Of a stretch of 44,769 nt of DNA, positions 1-31,889 are shown piece by piece (position 1 is the first letter of the stretch; each line of letters begins with the position of its first letter). Source of the DNA: Mustelus asterias (Eukaryota). Made by a program: the position numbers and the translations under genes. The DNA is taken from assembly GCF_964213995.1 (NCBI RefSeq), contig NW_027590623.1, positions 186,001 through 230,769 of the forward strand. Reading direction: 5' to 3'. The notes beneath the pieces are model-generated. The model was not told the DNA's origin, made no database searches, and saw nothing but the letters and a program-made list of their open reading frames with translations.

Positions 1-287
1 AACATTTTGGTCCGTGGAAAAGTGCAGTGTGTAAAAAGCTGAAGATGTTTCCATTTCACATCTTCCTGCTTTGGGGAAATGGGAGTTATCTTTGCATTTA
101 CAAGGATATGGGGAGGGAGGTGTTTGAATGGACATTCAGCTTTTTGGGTGATTAAAGTGTTAATTTGTTTCCAGAAGCTGTTTACAGTGATTGTCCCGAG
201 AGATTGTATTGTTTCAGTGATGTCGACGTCTCCAATACTTCAGACAGAGGAAGGAAACAATATACAAAAGGAAAGATTGGGGGAATC

Positions 288-492
288 ACTACATTGAAGG
301 TGTGAGGCCTCATCACTCTCTGTCTGGTTTTGTTCTGAAATCTTTACATTTTTAAACACTGAAATCTCTTGCCCTTGTTGGGAATATCACTGCGGTTTGA
401 GAAAAGCAAACACTGATCCCACACTAAACACCCCCCCCAACACAGGACTGAGCAGAGAGTGTGAAATGTGACTGGTGTCAGAGTGGATTGTC
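288..492 (+). repeat. ~205-bp local duplication (second copy 1767-1971)
   Basis: ACTACATTGAAGGTGTGAGGCCTCATCAC...GTGGATTGTC is present at both sites. Confidence 0.9.
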
Positions 493-1119
493 AAACTGAC
501 AGAAGGGATTTGAAAAATCTCTAAATGATTCATTGATTAAAAACTCTAACATTAATGTCCCGCATCATAAACATCTGCTTCATTATTGTATCTTTCTTTT
601 ACAGATCAAGTGATGGGTTGAATTTTGGACGGTGTAGATTTCCCTCAGCTGATTATTAAGATTCCTGATTGACACAAATACAATATCTGCTGTCGGTGAC
701 TCCAACAGTGAAATTCTCTCAGTTTATCATTCTGAATCTGTCACTGAGACAATTGTGGGCGGTAGTTCAGTTTTCAGTGTGAAATGTAGAAGGTAACTTT
801 TGTTGTAATGTAATTGTAGTTAATAGTTTTCCTGTAGTTTAAATCTCAGGTATAAATTAATAACTTTTCTCGTTCCTTGTTCACAATTGTTCATTTCCCG
901 TGATGTTGAGCTCTGGTTTTCTCTTTCTGGTGTCTGGTACAGCTGTACAGATATTGGGCAGCTCAGAGCGGGGCGGGGGGGGGGGGGGGGGTTCTGATCT
1001 CATTGTGAAGCTCAAAGGTCAGATTCACTTTTGTTAACTTTAAAATCAATTTTCCTGTCAAATATTCTCTGAATTTGTAAATAAATATTGAATGGAAAAT
1101 AAAATCTGACTTTGCCAAA

Positions 1120-1697
1120 CTCTCTTTCTGTATTTCTCTGTTGGTGTGTTTATGTGTGTGTCTCTCTGTCTCTATCTCTCTGTGTATCTGTGCGTCTCTC
1201 TGTGTATCTGTGCGTCTCTCTGTGTCTCTATCTCTCTGTGTATCTGTGTGTCTCTCTGTTTCTATCTCACTGTGTATCTGTGTGTCTCTCTGTCTCTATC
1301 TCTCTGTGTATCTGTGTGTCTCTCTGTGTCTCTATCTCTCTGTGTGTCTGTGTGTCTCTCTGTTTCTATCTCTCTGTGTATCTGTGTGTCTCTCTGTGTC
1401 TCTATCTCTCTGTGTCTCTATCTCTCTGTGTATCTGTCTCTGTATTTCTCTGTATCTGTGTCTCTCTCTGTATATTTGTATATTTCACTCTGTCTCTGTG
1501 TTTGTGTCTCTCTCTTTTCTTCTCTCTGTCTCTATTTCTCTGTATCTGTGTGTCTCTCTGTCTCTGTACTTCTCTGGATCTGTGTCTCTCTCTCTGCCTC
1601 TGTGTGTATATCTCTCTATGTATCTGTGTGTGTCTCTCTGTCTCTGCATTTCTCTGTATCTGTCTCTGTCTCTGTGTTTCTCTGTCTCTGTGTGTCT
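1120..1697. repeat. Compound (TC/TG/TA) microsatellite
   Basis: Imperfect TCTCTGTGTATCTGTGTG tracts; source of the spurious S/L/C/V-rich ORFs. Confidence 0.95.
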
Positions 1698-2039
1698 CGA
1701 TGCTAAGGGCCTAGTATTTCAGGCTCTGACCTGAACCCACAATCTCTCTGACTCTGAGCAAAGATTACTACATTGAAGGTGTGAGGCCTCATCACTTTCT
1801 GTCTGGTTTAGTTTTGTAATCTTTACATGTTTAAACACTGAAACCTCGTGCCCTTGTTGGGAATATCACTGCGGTTTGAGAAAAGCAAACACTGATCCCG
1901 CACTAAGCACCCCCCCCAACACAGGACTGAGCAGAGTGTGTGAAATGTGACTGGTGCGAATGTGGATTGTCTTTTAAAAGTGGGTAAGAAACACTTCATT
2001 TTCAAATCTTTACCCTGCTTCTGTAGCGTCTCAGATTCC

Positions 2040-2200
2040 ACCTAATCTGCACATCTTTGGACTGTGGAAGGAAACCGGGGCACCCGGAGGGAACCCACGC
2101 AGACACAGGGAGAATGTGCATACTCAACTCCCAACGGAGAATTGAACCCGGCTTCCTGGTGCTGTGAGGCAGCAGTGCTAAACACTGTCCACCATGTAGC
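2040..2200 (-). mobile_element. HE1-type SINE, partial
   Basis: Reverse of GCACTGCTGCCTCACAGC...GTCTGCGTGGGTT(T)CCTCCGGGTGC; boundaries approximate. Confidence 0.8.
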
Positions 2201-2202
2201 CC

Positions 2203-2372
2203 TATCCCATGTATTGGGACACGGTGAAAAGGTTTGTTTCTTGCACGCTACACAGACAAAACATACCGTTCATAGAGTCCATTCGGGAGAAGGAGAGGAG
2301 AGGGTGCAGAATACAGTGTTGCAGTTACCGATAGGGTATAGAGAAAGATCAGCTTAATGTATGGTAGGTCCA
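2203..2372 (-). mobile_element. 3' tail of a Rex1/Babar-type LINE
   Basis: Reverse-complement homolog of 5445-5580 joined to 5921-5955. Confidence 0.7.
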
Positions 2373-2734
2373 CTCAAAAATTAACATTCTGACCAAACAC
2401 TAAAGCTTTCCACAAAACAAGGCTCACAAATTCAACACCACTTTCCTTTGTCCAGTCTCCCATCATGCTGTGCGCGGAGGCTCTGATCGATGCTAAGGGC
2501 CTAGTATTTGAGGCTCTGAGCTGAACCCACAATCTGTCTGATTCTGAGGGAAGATTACTGCCACTCAGATACAGCTGGCTGCAATATCCCCTTGAAATAT
2601 ATCTGCTGTGTACAGAGCCACATGTTTTTTTTCCCTGTGTCTGCTGTCCTCAAAGAACTATTGAATAATCTAAACATCCGCATTAATGATCACAGAACAA
2701 GGCCAACATGGGGGAATCGAGTATCAGGTTTAAA

Positions 2735-3030
2735 AGTTTATTTATTAGTGTCACAAGTAGGGTTACATTAACACTGCAATGAAGTTACTGTGGAAAATCC
2801 GTAGTTGCCATGCTCTGGCGCCTGTTTGGGCAACTTGGGGAGAATTTAGCATGGCTGATACACCTAACCAGCGCGTCTTTCGAACTGTGGGAGGAAACCG
2901 CAGCACCCGGTGGAAACCCACGCAGACACGGGGAGAATGTACAAACTCCACACTGACAGTGACCCAAGCCAGGAATCAAACCCGGGTCCCTGGCGCTGTG
3001 AGGCAGCAGTGTTAACCACTGTGCTGCCCC
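2735..3030 (-). mobile_element. HE1-type SINE
   Basis: tRNA-like head and conserved body; tail ...AACTTCATTGCAGTGTTAATGTAA...TAATAAATAAAC. Confidence 0.85.
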
Positions 3031-3142
3031 TCATCGAAACATTGTGCAGTTGTGGAATGCACAGGATAGGAGGGATGTGATAGCACTGGAAAAGGTGCAG
3101 AGGAGATTCACCAGGATGTTGCCTGGCCTGGAGAGTTTTAGT

Positions 3143-3437
3143 TCATAGAATCATAGAATCCCTACAGTCCAGAATGAGGCCATTCGACCCATCAAATCTG
3201 CACGGACTCTTACCCAGGCTTACCCCGTAACCCCACGTATTTTCCCGCTAATCCCCCTAACCTATACATCGTGGGACCCTCAGGGCAATTTTGCATGGAC
3301 AATGCACCCGGAGGAAACCCACGCAGACACGGGGAGAATGTGCAAACTCCACACAGACAGTAACCCGAGGCCGGAATTGAACCCGGGTCCCTGGCGCTGT
3401 GAGGCAGCAGTGCTAACCACTGTGCTACCGTGCCGCC
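3143..3437 (-). mobile_element. HE1-type SINE
   Basis: Head GGCGGCACGGTAGCACAGTGGTTAGCACTGCTGCCTCACAGCGCCAGGGACCCGGGTTCAATTCC; GATTCTATGATTCTATG tail. Confidence 0.88.
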
Positions 3438-3604
3438 ACTCGAACTGAAGAGAGATTTTATAGACTGAGGGTGTGATCTTACCACCTGTTGACGCCACAC
3501 TCCCGCTCAGCGAGGTCGGAGAATCTGGTGACCAGCCAAATCTCCTTTCACTGCAGTGGGATGGGAAAATCCTGCCGGCCTGAACAGTGATAAGATTCCA
3601 CCCT

Positions 3605-3980
3605 GGGGTTGTTTTCCGTGGAGCAGAGGAGGCTGAGGGGGAACATGATGGAGATGGATAAGATTATGAGGGACATCGATAGAGTAGACGGGAAGAAAGC
3701 TTTCCCCTTGGTGGTGGGATCAATGACCAGGGGGTATAGATTTAGGGTAAGGGGCAGGAGGTTTACAGGGGATGTGAGGAAAACCTTTTTCACCCAGAGG
3801 GTGGTGGGAGTCTGGAACTCTCTGCCTGAAAGGGTGGTGGAGGCAGAGACCCTCAGAACGTTTAAGAAGTGCTTAGCTATGCATTTGCAATGCCAAGGCT
3901 TACCAGGCCGTGAGCCAAGTTGGGTGATTTGTCTTTGACCGGCACAGATGCAATGGGCCGAAGGGCCTTTTCTGTTCTCT
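3605..3980 (+). mobile_element. CR1-type LINE 3' fragment (continues from 3035-3142)
   Basis: FSVEQRRLRG...RGYRFRVRGRRF...FFTQRVVGVWNSLPERVVEA is a typical CR1 ORF2 C-terminus. Confidence 0.88.
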
Positions 3981-4639
3981 AGACCTCCATTGCTAAAACA
4001 CAACCTCACTGACCCAGCTTCTGGTCATCCATCCAAATCTCTCCCTCCGCAGCTCGGGGACAAATCCTGCCGCGCAATCTTCCTTTGAAGTGGCTTTGGA
4101 CATTTCATTCTCCGTGAGGACTTGTCCGGATAGTGGCTGCTGTTGTTGTGGTTGTCTCAGTGTCAGCTCAGCAACATGGACAACATGTTAGAAATGGCCG
4201 TCTCCCAGTGAGTGTGAGGACAGGGCAGGCTTTGAGCAAGGCCTGGGCCGCTCCCTGAAGGACACAGGGCCACCATTGTGCTTTTTGCTGACAAACAGAA
4301 AGCTTTCACCCCTCTCTCTCTCTCTCTCTCTCTCGTGTCTCATCTCACTCACATTCTGCCTCTTCCATTCACTCTGTGCTGCTTTCTGGAGGAGGCTGCC
4401 AGCTTTATCCGCCACAGAGCATCTGCCAACAAGAACATCAGATGAAACCTTCCATTCCCCAAGTCCCTCTTTCCTCTCTGCTCCTCCCTGGGATGGGAAG
4501 CTGATGGGAAAAGATTTGCAGGGCTCCAGGGACAAGGTGGAGCAGTGGGACTGGCTCGATTGCTCTAGCAGAGAGTCGACACCAGCTGAATGGGCTGAAT
4601 GGCCTCCTTCATTCTGTGGCTATTCTATGGTTGACACAC

Positions 4640-4960
4640 AATAGATAGTCAATATCTTTTCCCAAAGGTAGGGGAGTCTAAAACTCGAGGGCATGGGTTT
4701 AAGGTGAGAGGGGAGAGATACAAAAGTGTCCAGAGGGGCAATCTTTTCACACAGAGAGCGATGAGCGTCTGCAACAAGCTGCCAGAGGTAGTAGTAGAGA
4801 TGGACACAATTTTATCTTTTAAAAAGCATTTAGACAGTTACATGGGTAAGATAGATGTAGAGGGATATGGGCCAAATGTGGGGAATTGGGACCAGCTTAG
4901 GGGTTAAAAGAAAAAGGGCAGCATGACAAGTTGGGCCAAAGGGCCTGTTTCCATGCTGTA
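4640..4960 (+). mobile_element. CR1-type LINE 3' fragment
   Basis: RGERYKSVQRGNLFTQRAMSVCNKLPEVVVE...FKKHLDSYM, followed by a GGGCCAAAGGGCCTGTTTCC tail. Confidence 0.82.
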
Positions 4961-4997
4961 AACATCTGTGACACTATGACAACTTGTCATTTGGGTC

Positions 4998-5978
4998 TCA
5001 ACTTCAAGTTTGTAGGTGTCCAGATCACCAACAACCTGTCCTGGTCCCCCCATGCCGACACTATAATTGAGAAAGCCCACCAACACGTCTACTTTCTCAG
5101 GAGGCTGAGGAAATTTGGCATGTCAGCTACGACTCTCACCAACTTCTACAGATGCACCATAGAAAGCATCCTTTCTGTATCACGGCTTGGTCTGGTTTCT
5201 GCTCTGTCCAAGACTGCAAGAAATTACAAAAGGTCGTGAATGTAGCCCCGTCCATCACGCAGACTAGCCTCCCATTCATTGACTCTGTCTACACTTCCCG
5301 CGGCCTTAGAAAAGCAGCCAGCATAATTAAGGACCTCATGCACACATTCTCTCTTCCACCTTCTTCCGTCAGGAAAAAGATACAAAGTCTGAGATCACGT
5401 ACCAACCGACTCAAGAACTTCCCGGCTGTCCTCAGACTTTTGAATGGACCTGCTACATATTAGATTTATCTTTCTCTACACCCTACCTATGACTGCAACA
5501 CTACATTCTGCACCCTCTCTTTTACTTCTCCCCGATGTACTCTATGAACGGTATGTTTTGTCTGTACAGCATACAAGAAACGGCGGCACGGTAGCACAGT
5601 GGTTAGCACTGCTGCTTCACAGCTCCAGGGTCCCGGGTTCGATTCCTGGCGCGGGTCACTGTCTGTGTGGAGTTTGCACATTCTCCTCGTGTCTGCGTGG
5701 GTTTCCTCCGGGTGCTCCGGTTTCCTCCCACAGTCCAAAGATGTGCGAGTTTGGTTGATTGGCCAGGTTAAAAAATTGCCCCTTAGAGTCCTGAGATGCG
5801 TAGGTTAGAGGGATTAGCAAGTAAATATGTGGGGGTAGGGCTTGGGTGGGGCTGTGGTCGGTGCAGACTCGATGGGCCGAATGGCCTCCTTCCGCACTGT
5901 AGGGTTTCTATGATTTCTTTGAAACAATACTTTTCACTGTATCCCAATATATGTGACAATAATAAATCAAATCAAAAT
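4998..5978 (+). mobile_element. Rex1/Babar-type LINE 3' fragment, interrupted by a SINE
   Basis: FKFVGVQITNNLSWS...AHQHVYFLRRLRKFGMSATTLTNFYRCTIESIL; frameshifted; ends in AATAAATCAAATCAAA. Confidence 0.8.
5582..5920 (+). mobile_element. Full-length HE1-type SINE with GAAAC target-site duplication
   Basis: GGCGGCACGGTAGCACAGTGG...TTCTATGATT, flanked by GAAAC at 5577-5581 and 5921-5925. Confidence 0.9.
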
Positions 5979-6194
5979 CCTCCCAATTCTTTCCTCCACG
6001 ATCGGTCGCAGCATTTAAAGAACACGCCCAGGGCCCAGTGCTGAGTCTGAGGGTATCTGACTGCAGTAAGGTGAGTGATACAGGAGGGTCTCACTGTCTG
6101 AGGGAGGTGAGTCTTAGCCTGGGGTGCGTGAGTGACCCAGGTTAATCTGACACTCCAGGGACAGTTGGAATGGAGCTTTCCCCCGGGCTGTCCC

Positions 6195-6408
6195 CTCCCC
6201 GTGTCTGCGTGGGTTTCCTCCGGGTGCTCCGGTTTCCTCCCACAGTCTGAAAGATGTGCCGGTTAGGGTGCGTTGGCCGTGCTAAATTCCCCCTCAGTGT
6301 AACCCGAACAGGCGCCGGAGTGTGGGCGACTAGGGGATTCTCACAGTAACTTCATTGTAGTGTTAATGTAAGCCTACTTCTGACACTAATAAATAAACTG
6401 AAACTGAA
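6195..6408 (+). mobile_element. HE1-type SINE, 5'-truncated
   Basis: CCCCGTGTCTGCGTGGGTTTCCTCCGGGTGCTCCGG... to TAATAAATAAACTGAAAC. Confidence 0.85.
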
Positions 6409-6477
6409 GGTCAAGGTGCTGCTGTGACAATGCACTCTTGTTTAAACACTCTGCAATGCTGAGACTGGGAGAAGTGA

Positions 6478-6492
6478 CCACCAGGGGGCAGC
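6478..6492 (+). promoter_or_regulatory. CTCF-binding motif
   Basis: CCACCAGGGGGCAGC, essentially the CTCF core consensus. Confidence 0.65.
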
Positions 6493-6599
6493 ATTGCAGC
6501 TTCTGTCCCCCTATTGAAACTGGGATTGTTGCTCCATCTGCTGCACAATCCCAACCCCATCCACTGGGGGCAATCTGGACAATGGCTGCAGACAGACCT

Positions 6600-6920
6600 C
6601 ACTGCGCGTGCGCCGCAATGACACCCACCGCCGGCGGCCATCTTGCGTTGCCAAGGGAGACGGCCAGCGGCCCTATTCCGTTGCCAAGGGAGACGGCGGC
6701 GGCGACCATCTTGCGTTGCCAGGGGAGACGGCATCAATGCGGCGGCGTCCCCGCGCGCTGACCTCTGGGAGCATTCCCGTCCCGCACATGCGCACAGGCC
6801 GCCCCGCCCCCTCGGCTGACCCCCCCCTGTTGTCCCGCCAACGAGCATGGGCCGGAGTGGGCAAGAGGTGACACTGGGAGGAGCAGCCCCCCGGGGAGCG
6901 TTACAGCGACGCCTGGTGGC
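6600..6920. promoter_or_regulatory. CpG-island-like promoter with triplicated X-box (RFX-like), YY1, NRF1 and GC-box motifs
   Basis: CpG-dense; GTTGCCA(A/G)GGGAGAC at 6647, 6680 and 6715; CGGCCATCTT at 6635-6644; TGCGCGTGCGC at 6603 and GCACATGCGCA at 6784; CCGCCCCGCCCC at 6799. Confidence 0.6.
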
Positions 6921-7931
6921 CAGGAAGGGCAATAGCAGCAGCACAGTCTCTGCCCAAAGGCTTCCCCAGTTCAGCTGCTCAGAGACACTGGGAATGTCTT
7001 CAAGTGGAAACTTCAGCTTCTCACATTCACCCCCTGTGTTCAGTCATTGTTTCCTAGACAAAGTAGTGAAGAACATTGGGAGAACATGCTTCCAGCTTAA
7101 GAATTCCACAAAATCAGCAGAATTGTAAAATTATGTCAACTCTTGTACTCTGATGTGAAGAAGTAATTTTATATCATGGGCAGTCCTCATTTATTGGGAG
7201 ACTAAGAGGCGTTACCCAATGACAGGATTGGCTTGTTGCTCAGTGTTGTCAAGAATTGGCCACCGAACAACATTGGTTGTAGCCCAATAACTTTACCTGC
7301 CCCTGCCTGTCTTTCTCTGCGCCTCTGGGTCTCTGTTCACCTCGGTGTCCATCTTGCACTCTCAATATTTTGGCGGCTAATGTCTGTCTCCTCTCTCTGT
7401 GTCTCAAAGCCCCTCTCTCCCTCAACCGTTTTCCAGCAACGTGCAGAATTTAGAACATGCAATTTCTCCCAGTCTCCTATTTCAATAAATTCCCCAAGCC
7501 CCATGAGGGGACAGCTGATATGTTAGCCAAAATATCATCATGACAACTCTGAGGAAAGTTTAAACTTGAAGCAGGTGCACTGAAATCCGACAATCTGTCA
7601 GATAAATGTGAGGTTGGAGTCAAATTTACAACCTTTCGATGTGTGGAGAGAACTTTATTGAGAGTTCGAATCTTAGCAGCATTGCTGTGGTTTCAAATGT
7701 TGTAACACGAATATAGTTTAACAGAAAGGCCTGGAACACTCAAAACAGATAAAGCAATTAATTGATGAGGATTTAGACTGAAGTTCGTATTAGTTCCGTG
7801 CATGGGTCCACCTGAATTTAAGTATATTATAACAAGAATCATGAGAACAAGAAAAAATACAGCAGCAAAATCCTGCAACAAGATCCTTCAGTAATCTGAG
7901 AATTCACTGATCTCCCATTTACCTCACATCA

Positions 7932-7945: not shown

Positions 7946-8065
7946 TCCCTCACCGTGTTTTTGTGTTCACTGTTTCAGGAGCGGGTTCCATAACACATGG
8001 ATATGTTGGGGAGCCACAATCCAAGAGAACAGGATGAATTATTCAATTACCCGGTTAAAGGATAG

Positions 8066-8241: not shown

Positions 8242-8243
8242 AT

Positions 8244-9187: not shown

Positions 9188-9658
9188 ATGTTCCTGATTC
9201 TAGTTATTGCACTGATCCCAGGTCAGTGATTCTGGTCACAGATTGTAAAGTATATCGCAAACCTTGTGCAATTTCCCTTTCCCAGCGCTGTGTGACTATC
9301 GTCTTCCTCTGACTCCTAACCCGCTGTGCGTCCGCTGTTTATTTTCAGAGATGAGCAATGGAGACTCAGTGTTCCAGTCAGAACCAGGAGTTGAAGCAGC
9401 AGAGGGTGAAGATTCAGCAATACCCTGCAGTTACTCTGTGCCGAGTTCAGCTCTACAACATGACCTGTTCTGGTATCGCCAGTATCCACACCGAGCTCCT
9501 CAGTATCTGCTCAGAGCCGATAGTTATGGGTTTACCGATACGGCTCCCGGCTTTGGACACTTCAGCGGGAATCTCAACCAGACACAAAGCACTTTTCACT
9601 TGTCCATGAAAGATTTGAAGATGAGAGACAGCGCCGTGTATTACTGTGCACTGAGACC
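9188..9658 (+). CDS. TRAV: TCR alpha/delta-type V gene segment V1 (leader exon 9188-9221, intron 9222-9348, V exon 9349-9658); apparently functional germline segment
   Basis: Leader MFLILVIALIP+G|GTCAGT; acceptor TTATTTTCAG. Spliced product ...EMSNGDSVFQSEPGVEAAEGEDSAIPCSYS...LFWYRQYPHRAPQYLL...DSAVYYCALRP has the IgSF V-set Cys, WYRQ and YYC hallmarks and is followed directly by a 23-RSS. Alpha vs delta cannot be resolved here. Confidence 0.93.
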
Positions 9659-9697
9659 CACAGTGAGTGAGGCTCCCGCGGGCCTCAGACAAAAAGT
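9659..9697 (+). other. 23-RSS of V1
   Basis: CACAGTG (9659-9665) + 23-bp spacer + ACAAAAAGT (9689-9697). Confidence 0.95.
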
Positions 9698-10084
9698 GAC
9701 GCAGACGTTTCAGGGTCAGAGAAAAAGAGTCGGATCTCAACGAAAATGCGCAGAAAATGAAGGCCACAATACAGCCCCAGCTGAATAATATTCCCCCCAC
9801 TGAGCTCAGCCATTGTCAGTGTTGTGAAATGTCACATTTGCCGTCCTATTATTCCCGGATCAAATCCAACCATTCTCCGACCCCATCCGCACAAAATCTG
9901 CAGATTATCCCGGGTGAATAACTTCCTTAATCTGTACTTAGAAAGATTCTGGATTCGGTGCCTATCTGCCCGGCCACACATTTTAAAAGTGATCTATTGT
10001 CAAATGCAGCCTCAGAATTGGCCCATTTTCAAGTCCGTGGAGCAGAAATAATAACTGCTTGAAATCAGAGCTTTTCTATTTGGG

Positions 10085-10555
10085 GAATAGAGGGGTACAG
10101 TGAAGATTTACCATGCTGATTCCTGGGATGGCAGGTCTGTCATATGACGAGAGATTAAATCCGTTAGGATTATATTCACTGGGGTTTCGAAGAGTGAGGG
10201 GATCTCATAGAAACTTATAAAATTCGAACAGGGTTAGACAGGGTGGATTCAGGAGACTGTTCCCAATGCTGGAATCCAGAACTAGGCGTCATCTTTTGAC
10301 GGTAAGGGATAAACTGAGGTGAAGGGAAATCCCTTCATCCAGAGAGTGTTGAATGCATGGAATTCAGTACCACCGAATGTAGTTGAGGCCAAAACGTTGT
10401 CTGATTTCAAGAAGAAATTTGATATAGCTCTTGGGGCTAAAGGGGTCGAGGGATATGGGCGAGGGGGAAGGGGGATCAGGATATTGAATTCCATGATCAG
10501 CTATGATTACGATGATTGGCGGAGAAGGCTCCTGCTTCTAGTTTCTATGTTATGA
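10085..10555 (+). mobile_element. CR1-type LINE 3' fragment
   Basis: FIQRVLNAWNSVPPNVVEAKTLSDFKKKFDIAL...; TTTCTATG tail. Confidence 0.82.
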
Positions 10556-10649
10556 GTCCGTGAAATATTTCCTGGTGCAGAGTTGAGTGACGACTTATCC
10601 CCGGTACACTTACAGCACTAACTATTGATTATGTTGAGTCATGGCCATT

Positions 10650-10933
10650 AGGATCAACGAGCCTGTCCCGACAACAATCCCACCCAGGCCCTATCCCCGT
10701 AACCCACATATTTAACCTGCTATCCCCTGACACTTAGGCTAATTTTGCGTGGCCAATCCAGCAAACCTGCACAGTTTAGGACTGTGGAAGGAAACTGGAG
10801 CACCTGAGGAAACCCACGCAGACACGGTGAGAAAGTGCAAACTCCACAGAGGCAGTGACCCGAGGCTGGAATCGAACCCGTGTCCCTGGGGCTGTGAGGC
10901 AGCAATGCTAACCACTGCGCCACCGTGTCGCCC
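10650..10933 (-). mobile_element. HE1-type SINE
   Basis: Reverse-strand tRNA-like head GGGCGACACGGTGGCGCAGTGGTTAGC and body. Confidence 0.85.
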
Positions 10934-11182
10934 ATAAATGATTAAATTAGTTTCACTTTTCACCTGAATTAGAAAAAAAGGATCTGCCTTCAGAAAGATT
11001 GATGGACTGAGTTCTGAGGAAAGCGAGTTCACCAGTTAATGAGACAGAATAACTGGTTATGTGGGAGAGAGCAGAGACAGAACAAGGAACTTAGAAATAA
11101 GTTTACGGCCAGGGAAGGAATGTGATTGGAAAGTGCCAGCTATATTAAATCATTAACTAACAGTGATTGCTTCACTGGTTAC

Positions 11183-11506
11183 GGGGCGGCATGATGCCAC
11201 AAGGGTTAGCGCTGCTGTCTCACAGTGTCAGGGACCCGGGTTCAATTCCGGCTTCGGATCACTTTCTGTATGAAGTTTGCATGTTCTCCCCGTGTCTACG
11301 TGGGTCCCCTTCGGCTGCTGCTGATTCCTCCCACAGTCCAAAGATGTGCAGGTTAGGTTGATTGGCCATGCTAAATTGACCCGAGTCTCAGGGGATACGC
11401 AGGGTAAATACACGGAGTTGCGGGAGTGGGGCCTGGGTGGGATTGTGACCGGTACAGACTCGATGGGACGAATGGCCTCCTTCTGCACTGTAGGGATTTT
11501 ATGATT
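11183..11506 (+). mobile_element. HE1-type SINE directly upstream of the V2 promoter
   Basis: GGGCGGCATG...GGGACCCGGGTTCAATTCC...GCACTGTAGGGATTTTATGATT. Confidence 0.85.
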
Positions 11507-11509
11507 CGC

Positions 11510-11673
11510 AGCTGACGTCAGCTCAGGGAGATGAGCCAATCGCAGCACTGAGAAACGCCTCCCAGTTTCCTAATAATAGAAGCTGCCTCTGATCTGAGTT
11601 GACTCTGTGATATAAGACTAGAGGCAGCAACTTATTGTAAACATTGTCGCTGCTTACTGTCCTATCAGGAACC
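11510..11673 (+). promoter_or_regulatory. V2 proximal promoter: CRE, CCAAT and TATA-like motifs
   Basis: Perfect CRE TGACGTCA at 11513-11520 inside the 14-bp palindrome AGCTGACGTCAGCT; AGCCAATCGCA at 11534-11544; TATAAG at 11611-11616. Confidence 0.65.
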
Positions 11674-12111
11674 ATGTGTTCCCTGTGTGCTTTACTGATA
11701 ATAATGGTCACGCTGCCCGGTGAGTCTGAGCTCAAATCCTCAGTGTGTGTTTCATGGGTTATATTTGTTCACTGATTTCTCACACATTCTACATTTTGTT
11801 GCAGGAATCAATGGCCAAGATTCAGTTTCCCAGGACCCGGCTGAATTAACGGTTCAGGAAGGATTGAACGTAACAGTGAATTGTAATTACACAGCAAAAA
11901 ATGCTTTTCCAAATCTCTTCTGGTACATCCAGTATCCCGGGGAAGCTCCGAGATATTTACTGCAGAAATATAGCAGGGGTGGCGGAGAAAAGTCTCCAGA
12001 TTTCCCTGACCGGTTTTCTGCTGATTTGGACAAGGACAAGAAAACAGTTCTTTTAAATGTCACCGGGGTCCATGTCTCTGACTGTGCCGTGTATCACTGT
12101 GCGCTGAGCCC
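11674..12111 (+). CDS. TRAV: TCR alpha/delta-type V gene segment V2 (leader exon 11674-11719, intron 11720-11804, V exon 11805-12111)
   Basis: Leader MCSLCALLIIMVTLP+G|GTGAGT; acceptor TTTTGTTGCAG. V exon GINGQDSVSQDPAELTVQEGLNVTVNCNY...LFWYIQYPGEAPRYLL...DRFSA...SDCAVYHCALSP, followed by a 23-RSS. Confidence 0.93.
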
Positions 12112-12150
12112 CACACTGTTACAGAGGCGCAGTGAGCCCGTACAAAAACC
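12112..12150 (+). other. 23-RSS of V2
   Basis: CACACTG (12112-12118) + 23-bp spacer + consensus ACAAAAACC (12142-12150). Confidence 0.95.
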
Positions 12151-12283
12151 TACAAAGGCAATCTCACCTCCTCTCACTGAATCAGATCTGTGACCTGGAT
12201 TGTGAACTGTTAATACAAACAAAACAATTGTATAACATAGAGTTAGTCCGAATGTTCTCATTCCATGGTGCTGAATGTGCCAT

Positions 12284-12351
12284 TCTTGTTTAAACACTCT
12301 GCAATGCTGAGACTGGGAGAAGTGAACAACAGGGGGCAGCATTGCAGCTTC
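12284..12351 (+). repeat. 68-bp paralog of 6436-6503 with a degenerate CTCF motif
   Basis: TCTTGTTTAAACACTCTGCAATGCTGAGACTGGGAGAAGTGA(ACAACAGGGGGCAGC)ATTGCAGCTTC matches 6436-6503 with two substitutions in the CTCF core. Confidence 0.85.
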
Positions 12352-13162
12352 CATTTTACTATTATTCCTTCCAAAGTGGATAACCTCACACTTACCAACG
12401 CTATACTCCATCTGCCAGATCCTCACCCACTCACTTAGCCTATCCAAATCTCTCTGCAGACTTACCGCATCCTCCACGCAATTCACTTTCCCACTCATCT
12501 TTGTGTCATCCGCAAACTTTGTTACCCAACACTCGGTCCCCTCCTCCAGATCGTCTATGTATATGGTAAATAGTTGAGGCCCCAGCACCAATCCCTGCGG
12601 CACGCCACTAGTCACCAACTGCCAACCAGAAAAGCACCCATTTATTCCAACTCTCTGCTTGCTGTTGGATAGCCAATCCCCAATCCACGCTAACACTTTA
12701 CCCCCAACTCCGTGCACCCTAATTTTCTGCAGCAACCTTTTGTGAGGCACCTTATCGAACGCCTTCTGAAATCCAAAAACACCACATCCACTGGTTCCCC
12801 TCTGTCAACCGCACTCGTTACATCTTCATAAAAATCCAGCAAATTCGTCAAACACGACTTTCCCTTCATGAATCCATGCTGCGTCTGCTTGATCAAACCA
12901 TTTTTTTCCAGGTGTCCTGCTATTTCTTCCTTAATGATGAATTCCAGCAATTTCCCAACTACGGACGTTAAGCTAACCCGGGCTGTAGTTACCCGCCTTT
13001 TGTCTACCTCCTTTTTTCAACAGTGGTGTCACATTAGCTGTTTTCCAATCAGCCGGCACTTCCCCAGAGTCCAGTGTATTTTGATAAATTTGATAAATTA
13101 CAACCAACGCATCCTCTATTACTTCTGCCACTTCTTTCAGTACCCTGGGATGCATTCCATCT
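12352..13162 (-). mobile_element. CR1-type LINE reverse-transcriptase fragment (frameshifted)
   Basis: QHGFMKGKSCLTNLLDFYE...SGVPQGLVLGPQLFTIYIDDL...KFADDTK, split over three frames. Confidence 0.93.
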
Positions 13163-13163
13163 C

Positions 13164-13637
13164 TTAGTCAAAACATCTACCTCATAAGAAGTGACAGAAC
13201 AATGAATGGTCTGAGATATTTCCATATGATGTTCTCTCAATTTGTAATTTTGCATTCTGTCAAATCCTCTTTCAGAGTGGAAATATAGCTTGCCTCCCCA
13301 TTGGACTGCTGATCCAATCAGTGCCAAACAGGGAAAAGCAGCAAAGATCAATATCTCCAATGAAATATCCAAGAAAACAGCACAGGAGAGACGGGTCAGA
13401 GTGCGAACAGCACAGGAAAACTGTGGGTGGGGCTACCATCGGCAGTGTGGTGACCGCTAGGATTTATCTGCAAGGAGCTGAACTCAATAACAATGTCAAA
13501 TTGGAAATTCTGTAACTTTGCCTCTCTATATGAGAGGCAGCTGAATGTCCATTCCACACTGCGGACCAGCATTCTTGCACCAGGAGTATCGGATTAGTAA
13601 GTGATTCAGTACAAAGCGAAATCCTCATCAGTGATGT
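13164..13637 (-). pseudogene. Orphan V promoter + degenerate leader exon (copy 1 of a 474-bp direct repeat)
   Basis: Near-identical to 14970-15443 (offset 1806). Aligns with the V3 5' region; leader-like ATA-TGG-AAA-TAT-CTC...=(I)WKYLRPFIVLSLLM vs V3 MVNYLTPILIILSLL. No V exon follows; it abuts a CR1 fragment. Confidence 0.65.
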
Positions 13638-13639
13638 TT

Positions 13640-13940
13640 GGACCTGGGTTCGATTCCCGGCTTGGGTCACTGTCTATGTAGAGTTTGCACATTCTCCTCG
13701 TGTCTGCGTGGGTTTCCTCCGGGTGCTCCGGTTTCCTCCCACAGTCCAAAGATGTGCGGGTTAGGCTGATTGGCCATGCTAAAATTGCCCCTTAGTGTCC
13801 TGGGATGTGTAGATTAGAGGGATTAGCGGGTAAAATATGTAGGAATCTGGGGGTAGGGCCTGGGTGGGATTGTGGTCGGTGCAGACTAGATGGGCCGAAT
13901 GGCCTCTTTCTGTATTGTACGGTTTCTATGATTTCTATGA
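13640..13940 (+). mobile_element. HE1-type SINE, 5'-truncated
   Basis: GGACCTGGGTTCGATTCCCGGCTTGGGTCACTGTC...TTTCTATGATTTCTATG. Confidence 0.88.
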
Positions 13941-14173
13941 GAAAGGCATCGAAAACGAAAAAAAAAGGTGTTGCAGTATCTCAGATCGATATTGCAAATG
14001 TAAGCTCCGACCATTAACTGATGTAACTGCAACTGGACCACACCAGTTGCCTTTTTTGAGTGTTGTCTTTTGTTGCAATGTTAAGAATCTCCGTCACTCT
14101 CTCTGTGGAAACTGAATTACCCGCGTGTGTGCGCGCGCACCCTGCTGGGCACTAACTGGAACTGCCAGTGTGG

Positions 14174-14213
14174 GGTTTTTGTACGGGATTCGCTATATCT
14201 CTGCAGCAGTGTG
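14174..14213 (-). other. RSS of V3 (24-bp spacer)
   Basis: Minus strand: CACACTG (14213-14207) + 24-bp spacer CTGCAGAGATATAGCGAATCCCGT + ACAAAAACC (14182-14174). Confidence 0.9.
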
Positions 14214-14711
14214 GGCTTCATGGCACAGAAGTACACGGCGCTGTCGGAAATCAGTGTGTTACTGATCGTCAGCTCGCTAGTCTTGTTCTTTTTCTCAAAT
14301 TTGGAAGAAAATCGATCATTGAGGTCGGTGTTCCTTTGTACATTCTCTCCAATAAGCTGAAACATGTAAACTGGAGCTTTCCCGGGCTGCTGACTGTACC
14401 AGTACACATTAGGGCTGGAATAGCTTGTTTTCAAAGTGCAGGTTAGTGTGACATCATTTTCCTCTTTAACCTTTATTCCAGGATCCAATTGTTCCACTTC
14501 GTCTTGGTGGCTCCATTCTAACAGAAACAACAGCAATATGACAATCAGAGTTAGCCTCAGATTAAACGATACAATTATCATCATCACTATTGTTTTATCA
14601 ACAAGAATATCTGGGTTACAGCAGTCAAGAGGAGCTTGTAGTTTTACTGGGAAGAAAATGCTTACTGAGAAGTGAGAGAATGATGAGGATGGGAGTGAGA
14701 TAGTTCACCAT
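14214..14711 (-). CDS. TRAV: TCR alpha/delta-type V gene segment V3 (leader exon 14711-14666, intron 14665-14518, V exon 14517-14214)
   Basis: Minus-strand leader MVNYLTPILIILSLL+A|GTAAGC; acceptor GTTTCTGTTAG. V exon WSHQDEVEQLDPGIKVKEENDVTLTCTLKTSYSSPNVYWYSQQPGKAPVYM...DRFSS...SDSAVYFCAMKP, followed by an RSS. Confidence 0.92.
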
Positions 14712-14935
14712 GATGCTTCCTGAGTCTGTAACTCTGCAATGGGAGAAATCCTGTCAGAGACAGAAAGACACTGTTCCACTGCACTGCTGATCCAACCAAT
14801 GAGAGGAATGGAGCAGCGGCAGCAATCCGTCCAATCACGAGAGCAGAAAACGGAAGTCGCGGGCGGGGATGCAGTAGACAAAATATTGAGTGACGTGTGC
14901 GGCAACTTCAGCTGCACCCGGAACGGAAAGAGCGA
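14712..14935 (-). promoter_or_regulatory. V3 upstream promoter region
   Basis: Read on +: CCAAT at 14796 and 14831, ETS core CGGAAGT at 14851-14857, GC box GGGCGGGG at 14861-14868, CRE-like TGACGTG at 14891-14897. Confidence 0.55.
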
Positions 14936-14969
14936 GACTTCCAGCTATAGTGCGGGGGAGGATGGTTTT

Positions 14970-15443
14970 TTAGTCAAAACATCTACCTCATAAGAAGTGA
15001 CAGAACAATGAATGGTCTGAGATATTTCCATCTGATGTTCTCTCAATTTGTAATTTTGCAGTCTGTGAAATCCTCTTTCAGAATGGAAATATAGCTTGCC
15101 TCCCCATTGGACTGCTGATCCAATCAGTGCCGAACAGGGAAAAGCAGCAAAGATCAATATCTCCAATGAAATATACAAGAAAACAGCACAGGAGAGACGG
15201 GTCAGAGTGCGAACAACACAGGAAAACTGTGGGTGGGGCTACCATAGGCAGTGTGGTGACAGCTAGGATTTATCTGCAAGGAGCTGAACTCAATAACAAT
15301 GTCAAATTGGAAATTCTGTAACTTTGCCTCTCTATATGAGAGGCAGCTGAATGTCCATTCCACACTGCGGACCAGCATTCTTGCACCAGGAGTATCGGGT
15401 TAGTAAGTGATTCAGTACAAAGCGAAATCCTCATCAGTGATGT
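14970..15443 (-). pseudogene. Orphan V promoter + degenerate leader exon (copy 2 of the 474-bp direct repeat)
   Basis: Direct repeat of 13164-13637; the leader start codon position reads AGA. Confidence 0.65.
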
Positions 15444-15679
15444 GGATTGAAAATGGGACCGAATAGCTGAGCAGCCGGATTGGAGAGGTCCTGAATTAAT
15501 GTACAAGGGAACAGAAAAAGCTTTAATGTTTACGTTAAAGAGTGGGAAAGGAAATGTGCACAATTTCCATAAATCAGCAGGCAAGGACAGTCTGGAACAA
15601 ATAGGCAGAGAAGGAGCAGCACGGTAGCACAGTGGTTAGCACTGCTGCTTCACAGCTCCAGTGGACCTGGGTTCGATAA

Positions 15680-16262
15680 GTGGAAGCAACGTTCAGGTCA
15701 CACAGGTTCCAGGCTATGACCGTCTCCAAAAGAAGAGGATCTGACGAACTTTCCTTGATATTCAAAGGCATTACCATCTCTGAATCCTCCCCTCTGCTCC
15801 CCCCCTTCCCCTCCCCCACCCCCAACAACATCCTGGGAGTTGACCGAAAACTGAACTGGACCGAAGAATATGAATACCGTGGCTACCGGAGCAGATCAAA
15901 GGTTAGGAATCCTGTGGCGAGTAACTCACCACGTGACTCCCCAAAGCCTGTCCACCATCTACAAGATACAAGTCAGGGGTGTAAATGGAATGCTCCCTAC
16001 TTGCTGGATCAGTGTAGCTCCAACAACACTCATTAAGCTCGACAAGATACAGGACAGGGCAGTCCGCGTGATTGCGACCCATTCAATAAACACCCATTCC
16101 TGTCACCACCGACGAACAGTGGCAGCTGAGTGCAACACCTCCGGATATACAGCAGCAACTCAACAAGGATTTTTAGGCAGCACAATCCGAACACACGGCC
16201 ACTGCCATGTAGGAGGACAAGGGCAGCATTCACATGGGAACACCTCAATCTAGCGGTTCCCT
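15680..16262 (+). mobile_element. Degenerate non-LTR retrotransposon fragment
   Basis: NILGVDRKLNWT.../NTVATGADQRLGILWRVTHHVTPQSLSTIYKIQVR...LDKIQDRAVRVI resembles a LINE ORF2 post-RT region; clade uncertain. Confidence 0.7.
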
Positions 16263-16795
16263 TCCAATTTAAGTTAAGAATTCTTAGTTTCAATACGTGT
16301 CAAGTGTTCATTGTGTTAACTTAAGTCACATTCTACCGAACTTTTTCTAACTCTTTCCGAGTTGATATTTTTGTTTCAGTACTGTAACATTGAGAGATGT
16401 TTAATCGGGCTGTTGTCATTATTAGGATTTGCCTCAGCAGGCGGGCATCAGTTTACACTGTCGACTGATATTTCAAACCAATGATGATTGGTTCCTTTGC
16501 CCCAAGTGTTCTTTGAAACATCAGAACAAGAATACAACTAGTTCAAGGCTCCCTGCAGCATTTTGTATTCTCAATGTTAGTGCCGAGTTCCCGGTGATCC
16601 GAAATAAACAACAGATAATTCTTCCCTGGCACAATGAATGTAACAATCAGGCGTAATCTGTGAACGATTGTAGATCGTGTCTGTGTGAATTGTGGTCGGG
16701 TTTGCGCTGACAGCAAAGTATTGACGTGTCAGTGTATGACCCGCTGTGAGAAACACCTCTCGACAGACAGCAGCTGTGACCCAGAAACCTGCCGC

Positions 16796-16834
16796 AGTTT
16801 TTGTACGAGTATTTCACTCGTTCTCATCAATGTG
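16796..16834 (-). other. 23-RSS of V4
   Basis: Minus strand: CACATTG (16834-16828) + 23-bp spacer + ACAAAAACT (16804-16796). Confidence 0.9.
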
Positions 16835-17079
16835 AGACTCTGTGCACAGTAATAGACCGCGGTGTCAGGCAGCAGCAGCATCGACATAGCCAATCGGTAC
16901 AACTTGTCTAACTGCTGGGCTGAATCAGGAAATCGGGTGCCAGCGAAATCCGCCTTTAATTCAAAACCGCCGTTCTTGTCTCTCCGGACTGCAAACTCGG
17001 GCTGTCTGCCTGGATATTGACGGTACCAGAATAAATAATAGGCATCGTCGGTATAGGTGCAGATTAAAGTGACATCCCC
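16835..17079 (-). CDS. TRAV: TCR alpha/delta-type V gene segment V4, 5'-partial (leader and start of FR1 lost in repeat/gap)
   Basis: GDVTLICTYTDDAYYLFWYRQYPGRQPEF...DTAVYYCAQS; open frame with both Cys and WYRQ, followed by a 23-RSS. Functional status unknown. Confidence 0.85.
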
Positions 17080-17977
17080 CTTTGCCCCCCCCCTCCTGGG
17101 CTTTGCCCCCCCCCTCCTGGGCTTTGCCCCCCCCTCCTGGGCTTTGCCCCCCCCCTCCTGGGCTTTGCCCCCCCCCTCCTGGGCTTTGCCCCCCCCTCCT
17201 GGGCTTTGCCCCCCCCCTCCTGGGCTTTGCCCCCCCCCTCCTGGGCTTTGCCCCCCCCCTCCTGGGCTTTGCCCCCCCCCTCCTGGGCTTTGCCCCCCCC
17301 CTCCTGGGCTTTGCCCCCCCCCTCCTGGGCTTTGCCCCCCCCCTCCTGGGCTTTGCCCCCCCCCTCCTGGGCTTTGCCCCCCCCCCTCCTGGGCTTTGCC
17401 CCCCCCCCTCCTGGGCTTTGCCCCCCCCCCTCCTGGGCTTTGCCCCCCCCCCTCCTGGGCTTTGCCCCCCCCCTCCTGGGCTTTGCCCCCCCCCCTCCTG
17501 GGCTTTGCCCCCCCCCCTCCTGGGCTTTGCCCCCCCCCCTCCTGGGCTTTGCCCCCCCCCCTCCTGGGCTTTGCACCCCCCCTCCTGGGCATTGCCCCCC
17601 CACCCCTGGGCATTGCCCCCCCCTCCTGGGCATTGCACCCCTGGGCATTGCCCCCCCCGCTTGCCCGCCCCGCTTGCCCCCCCCCCCGCTTGCCCCCCCC
17701 CCGCTTGCCCCCCCCGCTTGCCCGCCCCCCGCTTGCCCGCCCCCCGACATCCCGCCCCCCGACATCCCGCCCCCCGACTGCCCGCCCCCCGACTGCCCGC
17801 CCCCCGACTGCCCGCCCCCCGACTGCCCGCCCCCCGACTGCCCGCCCCCCGACTTCCCGCCCCCCGACTTCCCGCCCCCCGACTTCCCGCCCCCCGACTT
17901 CCCGCCCCCCGACTTCCCGCCCCCCGACTTCCCGCCCCCCGACTTCCCGCCCCCCGACTTCCCGCCCCCCGACTTCC
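17080..17977. repeat. C-rich tandem repeat with a drifting unit (~21 bp CTCCTGGGCTTTGC(C)n changing to 15 bp GACTTCCCGCCCCCC) running into a gap
   Basis: Directly visible; possibly an assembly artefact. Confidence 0.9.
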
Positions 17978-27412: not shown

Positions 27413-28679
27413 TTAAAGTGGCTGCTGCAGGTTTTATTCGACCGTCGAGTCCCATCGATTTAAACACAGGCACTGTTTGGAAAAGGAGCAAAATGCAAAA
27501 GCCTTCCTGAGGTTAGGCCTGGGATTGAGGCCTGGTCACAGAGGCTGCATTATACATCCTGGACAAAGAACAGGTTCCCCAGGCCCCGGGCAGTTCACCA
27601 GAACAATCCCCTCCAGCCCCGAAACCTCCCGGACAGGGCCTGGGAGGAGGGAGGGGGGAAAAGGGAACCAGTGCTTCCCCCACCCCCTGTCCCCTTCCAC
27701 CCTCCCCTCACACCACACGCAGCCCCCATTACAGAATCACAGAATCCTACAGTACAGAAGGAGGCCATTCGGCCCATCAGGTCTACACCAACCACATTCC
27801 CATCCAGGCCCCATCCTCATTACTCCATGTGACTCTTTCTCTCTCTCTGTCTCCCTGTCTCTCTCTCTCTTTGTGTGACTTTCTCTCTGTCTCTCCCGAT
27901 CTCTCTCTCCCTGTCTAATATTGTTATGAAGTTGCGTATATCAGGTTAAAAATGTGGTGTTTGACAAATGTAAATATTGAAAAGAAATGCTGAGAAAACC
28001 AAAACGAACCATCCAGCGTTGTGTCTTTAGAAAGCCTGTGTCTCTGTGCTGGGGATTTTAAACTGCAGAAAGCAGGCTGCAGAACACAACTTTACAACAT
28101 TTGTGTCCAAAGCAGCAGCCAGAGTCCCAGCAGAGCAAAACAGGCTTTGAACTGGACCAATGATTTTAAAACAAGCTCTCAAACGCACACAACCAATTGC
28201 ATTCAAATTGGGGCGTTGGTGACAGCCTCAAGCCACTCAAATTGCAGGAATACTGTGAGGAAATTCTGGGTATTTAAACCCGGGACAGGGGGAAATAACG
28301 GGGAGGGAGCGACCTTGCTGCCTCTTTAGATTGAAGGGGGGAGAGTCTGATACTGAATCCTGCAGTAATATATACAGCTTCATCACATCACCATCTAAAT
28401 AGAAGCAGAAACCAACTCAGAAAGTATTCCAGACCCAAGCAGCAGAAGAAAGTTCACACTTCCAACAGACGCCTGGTATTATATTATTCGAGGGTGACTC
28501 TATTCTGTAATGATTTATTTCATTATTCCTGAGTGAGTCTTGTCATTGGAACAGCATTCTATTGGGGAGTTTATTCAGTTTGTTCATTGTTTTAATAAGG
28601 TTGTCACCCAGTCTAAATTAAAGACCTGTTAGTTGTTCCTGATGGAGAGAGTGTCAGATCTTGCTTTAATTTACCAATT

Positions 28680-28852
28680 GCTCCCACAGTCCAAAGCTGT
28701 GCGGGTTGGGTGGATTGGCCGTGTTAAATTGACCCTAGTGTCAGGGGGATTAGCAGGTTAAAAGTGTGGGGTCATGGGAATAGGGCCTGATTGGGATTGT
28801 GGTCGGTACAGACTAGATGGGCCGAATGGCCTCCTTCTGCACTGTAGGGATT
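28680..28852 (+). mobile_element. HE1-type SINE 3' half
   Basis: CTCCCACAGTCCAAAG...GGCCGAATGGCCTCCTTCTGCACTGTAGGGATT. Confidence 0.8.
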
Positions 28853-31800: not shown

Positions 31801-31889
31801 TTGGGAAAAGTTTATACAGAGAGAGAGAGAGAGGCAGAGAGGGGCTGAGACAGTGAAATCAAACCCCCCGGGACACCCAGAATGAAAAT

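Follow-up and report, generated by a model that had tools for sequence, protein, structure and literature searches.

What do four dissimilar TCR alpha/delta-type V segments of the shark Mustelus asterias, packed into about 8 kb and facing each other in pairs, belong to? The window analyzed here, a stretch of 44,769 nucleotides, is the end of the unplaced 230,769-base scaffold C591 (scaffolds are given by C numbers). On sequence grounds, we assign a probability of about 0.85 to the reading that segmental duplication, both direct and inverted, produced an array of 22 V in mixed orientation whose last members are these four, and that V1–V3 are likely ordinary germline TCR alpha/delta V genes for distant 12-RSS Jalpha segments.

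Anatomy of the four V segments

The V segments, their signals and the adjoining minisatellites were as follows (window positions).

9188..9221, +, V1 leader exon, 34 nt, phase 1, GT donor
9349..9658, +, V1 exon, open frame, TCR alpha/delta-type V-set domain
9659..9697, +, V1 RSS, CACAGTG-23-ACAAAAAGT
11674..11719, +, V2 leader exon, 46 nt
11805..12111, +, V2 exon, open frame
12112..12150, +, V2 RSS, CACACTG-23-ACAAAAACC
14174..14213, −, V3 RSS, CACACTG-24-ACAAAAACC, 24-nt spacer
14214..14517, −, V3 exon, open frame
14666..14711, −, V3 leader exon, 46 nt
16796..16834, −, V4 RSS, CACATTG-23-ACAAAAACT, altered heptamer
16835..17079, −, V4 remnant, pseudogene lacking a leader and the start of framework 1
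17080..17977, no strand, GC-rich minisatellites of 21-bp and 15-bp units, at the V4-truncating breakpoint

All four exons matched the Pfam V-set family PF07686 (E = 2.7e-13, 1.5e-16, 2.3e-15 and 5.7e-07 for V1 to V4), and motif reading found the conserved Cys, Trp and Cys of this domain in each. V1 and V2 lie on the plus strand and V3 and V4 on the minus strand, each exon followed by its RSS, so that the pairs face each other as a sequence-only reading had described. The RSS spacers were 23, 23, 24 and 23 nt, within the allowed 23 (±1). Four such RSSs were observed in region 9000–17100, compared with a mean of 0.005 (maximum 1) in 200 shuffles of this region in 2-base blocks. The earlier count of four V exons with 23-type RSSs thus stood for domain and RSS in 4/4, but V3 has a 24-nt spacer and V4 is a truncated pseudogene. 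The 24-nt spacer is a trait of the V3 family, common to its members on C591, C546 and C436; together with two mismatches in the V1 nonamer, it may lower use of these segments.

V1–V3 have intact gene anatomy, with a split leader, a GT-AG intron and a spliced open frame. V4 lacks its first ~15 residues, being cut at 17077–17080 by the 21-bp GC minisatellite; a run of N follows the minisatellite. A sister of V4 on C986 retains the whole exon but has lost the leader ATG, the donor and the acceptor, and the upstream letters of the copy on C315 are the same as those of the C986 copy. Because V4 has no leader or exon start and its sister has lost its splice signals, only three of the four segments (V1–V3) look functional from their sequence.

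Pairwise identity among V1–V4 was 32–38%, and they formed four separate clades in a tree of V sequences of the M. asterias genome, in agreement with the proposal of four divergent families. In PDB searches, the best single-domain matches of V2 were TCR alpha chains; for V1 and V3, multi-domain antibody constructs outranked TCR chains, and TCR chains were absent from the best 60 rows for V4. None of 139 candidate longer database proteins contained V2. The V sequence itself cannot decide between alpha and delta. The alpha/delta-type identity nevertheless holds, as indicated by the V-set domain, the RSS, and the occurrence of the same families beside Jalpha-Calpha and a delta cassette.

The C591 array and its duplicated modules

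No J, D or C was found in the window, as had been noted, and 0 of 105 window frames outside the V exons had an Ig-family Pfam match; only a LINE reverse-transcriptase fragment and ALKBH8_N were matched. The ALKBH8_N match sits in repeat-like DNA.

1..7061, no strand, left spacer duplicon, partial copy of a ~22-kb C591 tandem unit
12350..13161, −, LINE reverse-transcriptase fragment (RVT_1, E = 3.5e-17)
13164..13637, no strand, second copy of the V3-upstream stretch, ~97–98% identical to 14970–15446, with no V behind it
27950..33100, no strand, right spacer duplicon, full-length or near full-length at 17 other places

Inside the window, no other V occurs within 9 kb to the left or 27 kb to the right of the cluster. 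C591 as a whole carries 22 V-like exons (14 plus, 8 minus; five convergent neighbor pairs). Because 18 of these lie outside the window, at C591:120.6–177.0 kb, the closest 9 kb left of the window start, the isolation claimed for the cluster is an artefact of the window. A stop was found in the aligned part of 3 of the 22, and no D, J or Cdelta was found in the 231 kb of C591 scanned. Neither flank is the unrelated DNA it was taken for: each is a duplicon that recurs on other scaffolds with V segments. The left one is 95–97% identical to C546:11867–18686, C546 being the scaffold of the larger Jalpha-Calpha unit, which starts with this duplicon; copies of the right one are mostly on scaffolds that also bear V arrays.

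Within C591, the V1+V2 block repeats C591:117132–123519 in direct orientation at 97.6% identity, V1 has three copies in cis (~97.5%), and a 6-kb inverted duplication (97.4%) joins 146963–153036 to 171503–177568. The whole block from 7 to 17 kb is collinear on C986 (98.4–98.8%) and C315 (98.0–98.6%), and C1151 and C387 likewise carry the V2 and V3 parts next to each other, facing in the same order. Copies of the V2 module alone, which stops at window ~13161, were found at no fewer than 13 places, and copies of the V3 module, which begins at ~13164, at no fewer than 7; both counts come from the 40 of 21421 candidates that were scored. The end of the LINE fragment (~13162) is the joint of the two modules, where copies stop at query 1562 or begin at query 1565. 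As judged by these boundaries, the four-V block is a patchwork of separately duplicated modules, and its facing arrangement would be a by-product of module shuffling. A designed inversion cassette was ruled out by the same boundaries.

The facing arrangement, or the many copies, could also reflect misjoins or uncollapsed haplotypes in the assembly. The assembly has many unplaced scaffolds and near-identical scaffold pairs, and V4 is broken off at a minisatellite with a run of N behind it. However, the three full block copies differ by 1.2–2% and one inserted repeat, the V1 copies stand in cis, and the Calpha units described below differ by 13–21% in DNA. We regard an assembly artefact as very improbable, and since the same four-V block is collinear on two other scaffolds (98–99%), the misassembly raised by the sequence-only reading does not explain it. 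Haplotype duplication can inflate counts twofold at most, and the V4 cut may itself be a join. Some scaffold pairs are near-identical, for example C850 and C71:12.27 Mb (99.89%).

Candidate J and C partners in the genome

Strict V-end+RSS matches number 553 in the genome, one strict V-end pattern having matched only one family (6 matches), and the V-like exons are put at several hundred to about a thousand. The search for J and C on other scaffolds that had been suggested revealed two paralogous Jalpha-Calpha units, at C71:18.37–18.42 Mb (36 J) and C546:137–242 kb (140 J). The frame of the C exon on C71 was read by eye, motif scans being uninformative. The two Calpha share 73% protein and 79–87% DNA identity, which rules out the second as an allele. 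Neither C546 nor the 186 kb upstream of the J cluster on C71 yielded a Cdelta or a D. C546 carries 10 V (7 plus, 3 minus) 74 kb upstream of its 140 J and Calpha, three of them 91–93% identical to V3, and none of the 28 V3 relatives at ≥89% is on C71.

V segments with 23-RSSs cannot join each other and require a 12-RSS partner (12/23 rule); V–V joining was ruled out on this basis. The partner of V1–V3 would be a far-off Jalpha with a 12-RSS, to which RAG would join the segments of one orientation by deletion and those of the other by inversion; inversion retains the intervening DNA. The earlier argument that one pair must invert and the other delete thus remains valid if the segments are used in cis. 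C591 would lie close to the C546 unit in the chromosome region of the antigen receptors, and that unit would be the main partner of its V segments. Because C591 is unplaced, we can only infer its linkage and distance to any J.

We further examined delta-type C genes. Scaffolds with V segments also hold, scattered among them, 19 Cdelta exons with a C1-set domain (Pfam), which fall into at least 10 distinct groups. J segments lie upstream in 17 of 18, several units contain NAR-TCR cassettes, and an alpha/delta-type transmembrane exon was present in both Cdelta units checked in DNA and in all four NCBI models read. A D was found in the delta unit at C71:7.12 Mb; the Cdelta closest to the C71 Calpha is 6 Mb away on C71. 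Since a PDB search with Cdelta returned only Ig matches, the delta label of the 19 exons rests on this anatomy and on what we take to be the organization of shark TCRdelta and NAR-TCR. A representative protein search with Cdelta returned 40 unnamed proteins, without copy numbers for other sharks.

On C436, a V1+V2 copy corresponding to window 6453–12286 (97–98%, same direction) lies 15–30 kb upstream of a cassette of NAR-V, D, J and Cdelta, which makes a delta chain also a possible partner. The same V families are linked to Jalpha-Calpha (C546) or D-J-Cdelta (C436). That they mainly feed the delta chain, joining the 12-RSS of D in a neighboring mini-cluster, seems unlikely to us, though worth keeping in view: this copy and the scattering of Cdelta among V-bearing scaffolds favor it, as does the sharing of V between alpha and delta in 5/7 delta families of the nurse shark in the portion of that report consulted (PMC5931798), whereas the 231 kb of C591 are free of D, J and Cdelta, and among J-rich scaffolds that share its families and flank the alpha unit C546 comes closest. 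A delta partner is compatible with the alpha reading rather than exclusive of it.

The linkage on C546 and C436 also bears on the suggestion that the block is an orphon, a dispersed V island cut off from J that is decaying or serves only as a conversion donor. The empty flanks within the window, the dead V4 and the unplaced state of C591 fit such an island, but C591 holds 18 further V-like exons, few of its 22 have a stop in the aligned part, and the families and flanking duplicons are common to J-C-bearing scaffolds, same-family V lying upstream of both the 140 Jalpha with Calpha and the delta cassette. We therefore consider an orphon improbable.

A single-Calpha translocon with D-J-Cdelta directly before Jalpha was not what the genome contained: there are two Calpha, and the 19 Cdelta lie elsewhere. 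Given the two Jalpha-Calpha units and the 19 delta-type C exons, the delta genes of M. asterias likely sit in antibody-like mini-clusters. Going by sequence, we give slightly better than even odds to a wider picture, in which the alpha/delta locus would be broken into an Ig-like layout of at least 10 functional delta/NAR-TCR mini-clusters with their own J and Cdelta, two long-diverged delta-free Jalpha-Calpha units and a shared pool of about a thousand V in both orientations over >15 Mb, to which the window would contribute one slice. A literature search found no earlier description of a two-Calpha/many-Cdelta layout, key nurse-shark work being outside its reach.

Comparison with known loci

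The sequence-only reading had allowed that the arrangement would be ordinary if already annotated in orthologous shark loci, and it is. Mixed-strand TRAV with convergent neighbors are tabulated for Chiloscyllium punctatum in Supplementary Table 2 of Giorgetti et al. 2023 (PMC10322711), as far as that source was covered, and for white shark, epaulette shark and stingray in Table S1 of PMC12227049; in white shark, a plus/minus V pair is 0.8 kb apart. Since such arrays are already annotated, the facing four-V block is what shark TCR alpha/delta V arrays normally look like and carries little weight. In the portion examined, the C. punctatum TRA locus also has convergent pairs a few kb apart, a long J cluster and several scaffolds, and of the 53 V rows that precede the J cluster of the plus strand, 20 (8 plus, 12 minus) carry a mark for transcription. 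Because reads were mapped with 5 mismatches allowed and scaffolds were concatenated, these strand labels are no proof of inversion. This portion has one TRAC, and the V/J/C rows total 318, unlike the two Calpha units and larger V pool of M. asterias.

The elasmobranch antigen-receptor complex, AgRC (Flajnik et al. 2025, PMC12227049), in the part consulted, likewise has V of both TCR alpha/delta and NAR-TCR dispersed over megabases, on either strand. According to its Table S1, white shark, catshark, stingray and epaulette shark have a single TCRalpha C gene apiece and no more than one delta C, which adjoins TCRalpha in catshark and stingray, in contrast to the two alpha units and 19 Cdelta of M. 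asterias, 6 Mb from Calpha at the closest on C71. A search of the elephant-shark supplement found no description of the TCR locus. In the sections covered, the AgRC paper calls TCR alpha/delta a translocon and the review PMC6795676 calls shark TCR genes translocons, only Ig genes forming mini-clusters. If true, the layout surrounding the window would break this rule of single-translocon shark TCR genes, pose an allelic-exclusion problem akin to that of shark IgH, and be of interest to comparative immunologists. As the two Calpha differ at a quarter of residues, they are separable in reads, so that V-to-J range, inversion frequency and locus exclusion are testable by 5'RACE.

In the parts of the reports consulted, salmonid TRA/TRD (PMC8559430) has hundreds of TRAV (239 in salmon) and rearrangement by inversion, but V mostly in one orientation and a single TRDC and TRAC in one cluster. 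The newt Pleurodeles waltl (PMC12698447), an amphibian, has TRA1/TRA2, TRD uncoupled from TRA and expressed inverted V groups, but one or two TRDC units, no D and no NAR-TCR. Multiple complete TCRdelta/NAR-TCR cassettes would be a direct genomic parallel of delta and IgH: the shark IgH mini-clusters, as described in the available part of PMC6795676, encode antibodies but resemble the M. asterias delta units in their repeated V-D-J-C cassettes, some germline-joined.

Four facing V segments and their scaffold

Four V-set exons were detected in the window by Pfam profile match, each with an RSS.

RSSs of the four V exons (window positions)
9659, plus strand: V1 RSS, spacer 23
12112, plus strand: V2 RSS, spacer 23
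14213, minus strand: V3 RSS, spacer 24
16834, minus strand: V4 RSS, spacer 23

The mean chance expectation for such sites was 0.005 (200 shuffles). V1, V2, and V3 had a leader, a GT-AG intron, and a spliced open frame. V4 started within framework 1, at a GC minisatellite, and its exon was whole in the sister copy on C986. Because this complete exon has lost leader ATG, donor, and acceptor compared to two relatives with normal signals (relatives' leader as deduced), V4 is judged a pseudogene whether cut, as in the window, or whole. The sequence-only reading, four V exons with 23-type RSSs, was thus partly confirmed: exons, RSSs, and the facing of V1/V2 (plus) and V3/V4 (minus) stood, but not the V3 spacer or an intact V4. 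Its interpretation was partly supported. The strong divergence it described was reflected in identities of 32–38% and four clades in a tree. TCR alpha chains were the top single-domain PDB matches of V2; V1 and V3 matched such alpha chains or delta chains of TCR at ranks below multi-domain antibody constructs, and no TCR was among the best 60 PDB rows for V4.

The block was collinear on C986 (98.4–98.8%) and C315 (98.0–98.6%), so the facing arrangement is real and misassembly was not borne out. A 300-base repeat in the window copy was absent from both sisters, which carry two further V beyond V4, where the window copy stops. Thirteen copies ended at window ~13161 (V2 module) and seven started at ~13164 (V3 module), in 53 matches from 40 scored of 21421 candidates. 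From these ends, the arrangement is read as not special: two independently duplicated modules joined at a LINE fragment. A V2 relative (92%) was found in 13 equal-scoring copies, one per scaffold (C71:15164842; C87, C89, C104, C105, C154, C165, C166, C242, C261, C356, C469, C1203), which suggests a large, recently amplified unit. Another (80%), at C24:38776885 on a large chromosome apart from other matches, is a candidate true orphon.

The cluster's isolation was an effect of the window. Unplaced scaffold C591, whose end (186001–230769) is the window, carried 22 V-like exons from 120.6 to 203.1 kb, 14 on plus and 8 on minus, three with a stop in the aligned part; neighbours converged in 5 pairs and diverged in 4. 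The lack of D/J/C in view held for the whole scaffold, on which none was found. Among the matches listed, the V1+V2 block was a 97.6% direct copy of C591:117.1–123.5 kb, 147–153 kb and 171.5–177.6 kb formed an inverted duplication (97.4%), and the V-empty left flank repeated part of a ~22-kb tandem unit. This unit, with a 52-bp satellite, occurred in about four tandem copies at C591:28.7–118.3 kb, plus window 1–7061; no Pfam gene was found in its part within the window. Nor were the flanks unrelated to V DNA: the left matched C546:11.9–18.7 kb (95–97%), and a 5-kb right-flank piece was repeated (96–99%) on many scaffolds also with V matches. Window 31886–37500 held degenerate ~900-bp repeats with 121-bp units, common to other V-bearing scaffolds, without Pfam match among the frames scanned.

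Candidate Jalpha-Calpha partner units

RAG pairs a 23-RSS V with a 12-RSS J or D. A V oriented away from the J direction would have to rearrange by inversion, by which the chromosome retains its unused V and J for secondary rearrangement; the window V copies may rearrange thus, inversion included. Such retention was argued for salmonids in the available part of PMC8559430.

The scan for 12-RSS J and TCR C, proposed with the sequence-only reading, was negative on C591 and located J and Calpha elsewhere. A J-with-RSS pattern search of the assembly matched C71:18.39 Mb, and the Calpha search gave two strong matches of 47, C71 (18.419 Mb) and C546:240153, 73% identical.

Jalpha-Calpha units
C71:18.366–18.432 Mb: 36 J (35 distinct; few more by looser scan) and Calpha
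C546:137–242 kb: 140 J (121 distinct) and complete Calpha

C546 also carried 10 V, seven on plus and three on minus. C71 18.18–18.52 Mb showed no V, D, or Cdelta, and no Cdelta or D was found upstream of either unit in the DNA examined. One J-RSS family had 28 matches, 9 on C71, 19 on C546, and 0 elsewhere. The units were collinear at 79–87% DNA identity, which is too low for alleles; on this divergence they are considered paralogous. NCBI models labelled Mustelus asterias matched the C546 Calpha exon at 99–100%, and a third was the C71 gene. V3 had 44 relatives, 28 at at least 89%, all on small scaffolds, three on C546 and none on C71. These relatives and the shared left flank make the C546 unit the likely partner of the window V.

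At C71:18366453, 4 kb ahead of the first Jalpha, a 12-RSS preceded a J-like stretch without FGxG, possibly a pseudo-J. Eleven near-identical minus-strand V lay in tandem at C71:19.364–19.397 Mb (~2.5 kb spacing), 0.95 Mb downstream of Calpha and oriented back toward the J cluster.

Cdelta-type genes

Among the weak Calpha matches was another type of C, present as 19 copies with open frames, 82–100% identical (116 candidates scored), which we take to be Cdelta from unit anatomy and from what is known of shark TCRdelta and NAR-TCR. Three were on C71 (7.14, 11.04, and 12.27 Mb) and 16 on unplaced scaffolds; against PDB, they gave Ig matches only, no TCR. Among 18 of the 19 examined, 13 exon sequences were distinct, with splice signals intact, and 17 of the 18 had an upstream 12-RSS J. 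Grouping copies >99% identical over 10 kb gave 10 groups, or 12 loci if at most two alleles exist per locus.

The exons belonged to V-D-J-C mini-clusters, of which several included NAR-TCR cassettes. The C71:7.09–7.14 Mb unit comprised four V, one 12/23 D, and three J, together with exons for C1, the connecting peptide, and the transmembrane segment; on C436, the unit had NAR-V, D, J, supporting V, two J, and C. NAR-V plus a second V was the layout of three of four NCBI models inspected, these delta-type models being labelled alpha-like or uncharacterized. The C436 supporting Vdelta (213417–213766) ended with extra bases and the same RSS as the C71 unit's free D, and appears germline-joined to a D segment. 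A pair of IgH-like V exons at C71:7100161–7102684, one of them interrupted by stops, lay upstream of Ddelta and resembled TAILV or IgW V. At C8:50.17–51.09 Mb, weak Calpha-search matches formed a set of 22 C1-type exons, near-identical and on both strands at about 25–50 kb spacing, probably a light-chain mini-cluster array.

Published loci and the V pool

In the available part of Suppl. Table 2 of Giorgetti 2023 (PMC10322711), Chiloscyllium punctatum TRAV lie on both strands, as in the M. asterias arrays; 20 of 53 V rows ahead of the plus-strand J cluster are marked transcribed (8 plus, 12 minus; scaffolds concatenated). In Table S1 of Flajnik 2025 (PMC12227049), the TCR alpha/delta V of white shark, epaulette shark, and stingray lie on both strands across megabases; one plus/minus pair, in white shark, is separated by 0.8 kb. 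The facing four-V arrangement by itself is therefore ordinary, as the sequence-only reading had allowed were such loci already annotated. The portion of Flajnik 2025 consulted also notes V exons between IgH clusters.

In the same table (PMC12227049), each species has a single alpha C and no more than one delta C, based on automatically predicted genes, among which some C may have been missed; the M. asterias assembly holds two Calpha units and 19 Cdelta exons. Shark TCR genes are described as translocons in the review sections available (PMC6795676), and newts have two TRA loci with TRD separate, according to part of PMC12698447; excerpts of PMC1845163 and PMC3964593 served as NAR-TCR background only. 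In the literature searched, mostly as listings and lacking key nurse-shark work, neither several Cdelta clusters nor a pair of Calpha units was described for a shark. The surrounding architecture, seen in the assembly at the genomic level only, varies the known elasmobranch antigen-receptor complex.

A strict V-end+RSS pattern matched 553 times in the assembly (267 plus, 286 minus; control 0). Since six regions holding 72 V-like exons yielded 31 of them to this pattern, the assembly may by extrapolation contain ~1,200, fragments included, a figure that haplotype duplicates could halve. In the available part of PMC5931798, 17 germline V were judged a small part of the pool. Among 100 listed of the 553, 54 were on C71 between 4.5 and 19.4 Mb (22 on plus, 32 on minus), 19 on C87–C89, and 27 on C7, C18, C22, and C24; by end motif, these 27 are probably gamma and beta V, apart from one probable chance match. 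Matches of other types, on mixed strands of two or three chromosomes at C22 (1.25, 53.0–53.1 Mb), C24:52.55–52.83 Mb, and C7:140.6 Mb, probably represent TCR beta and gamma and are possibly duplicated.
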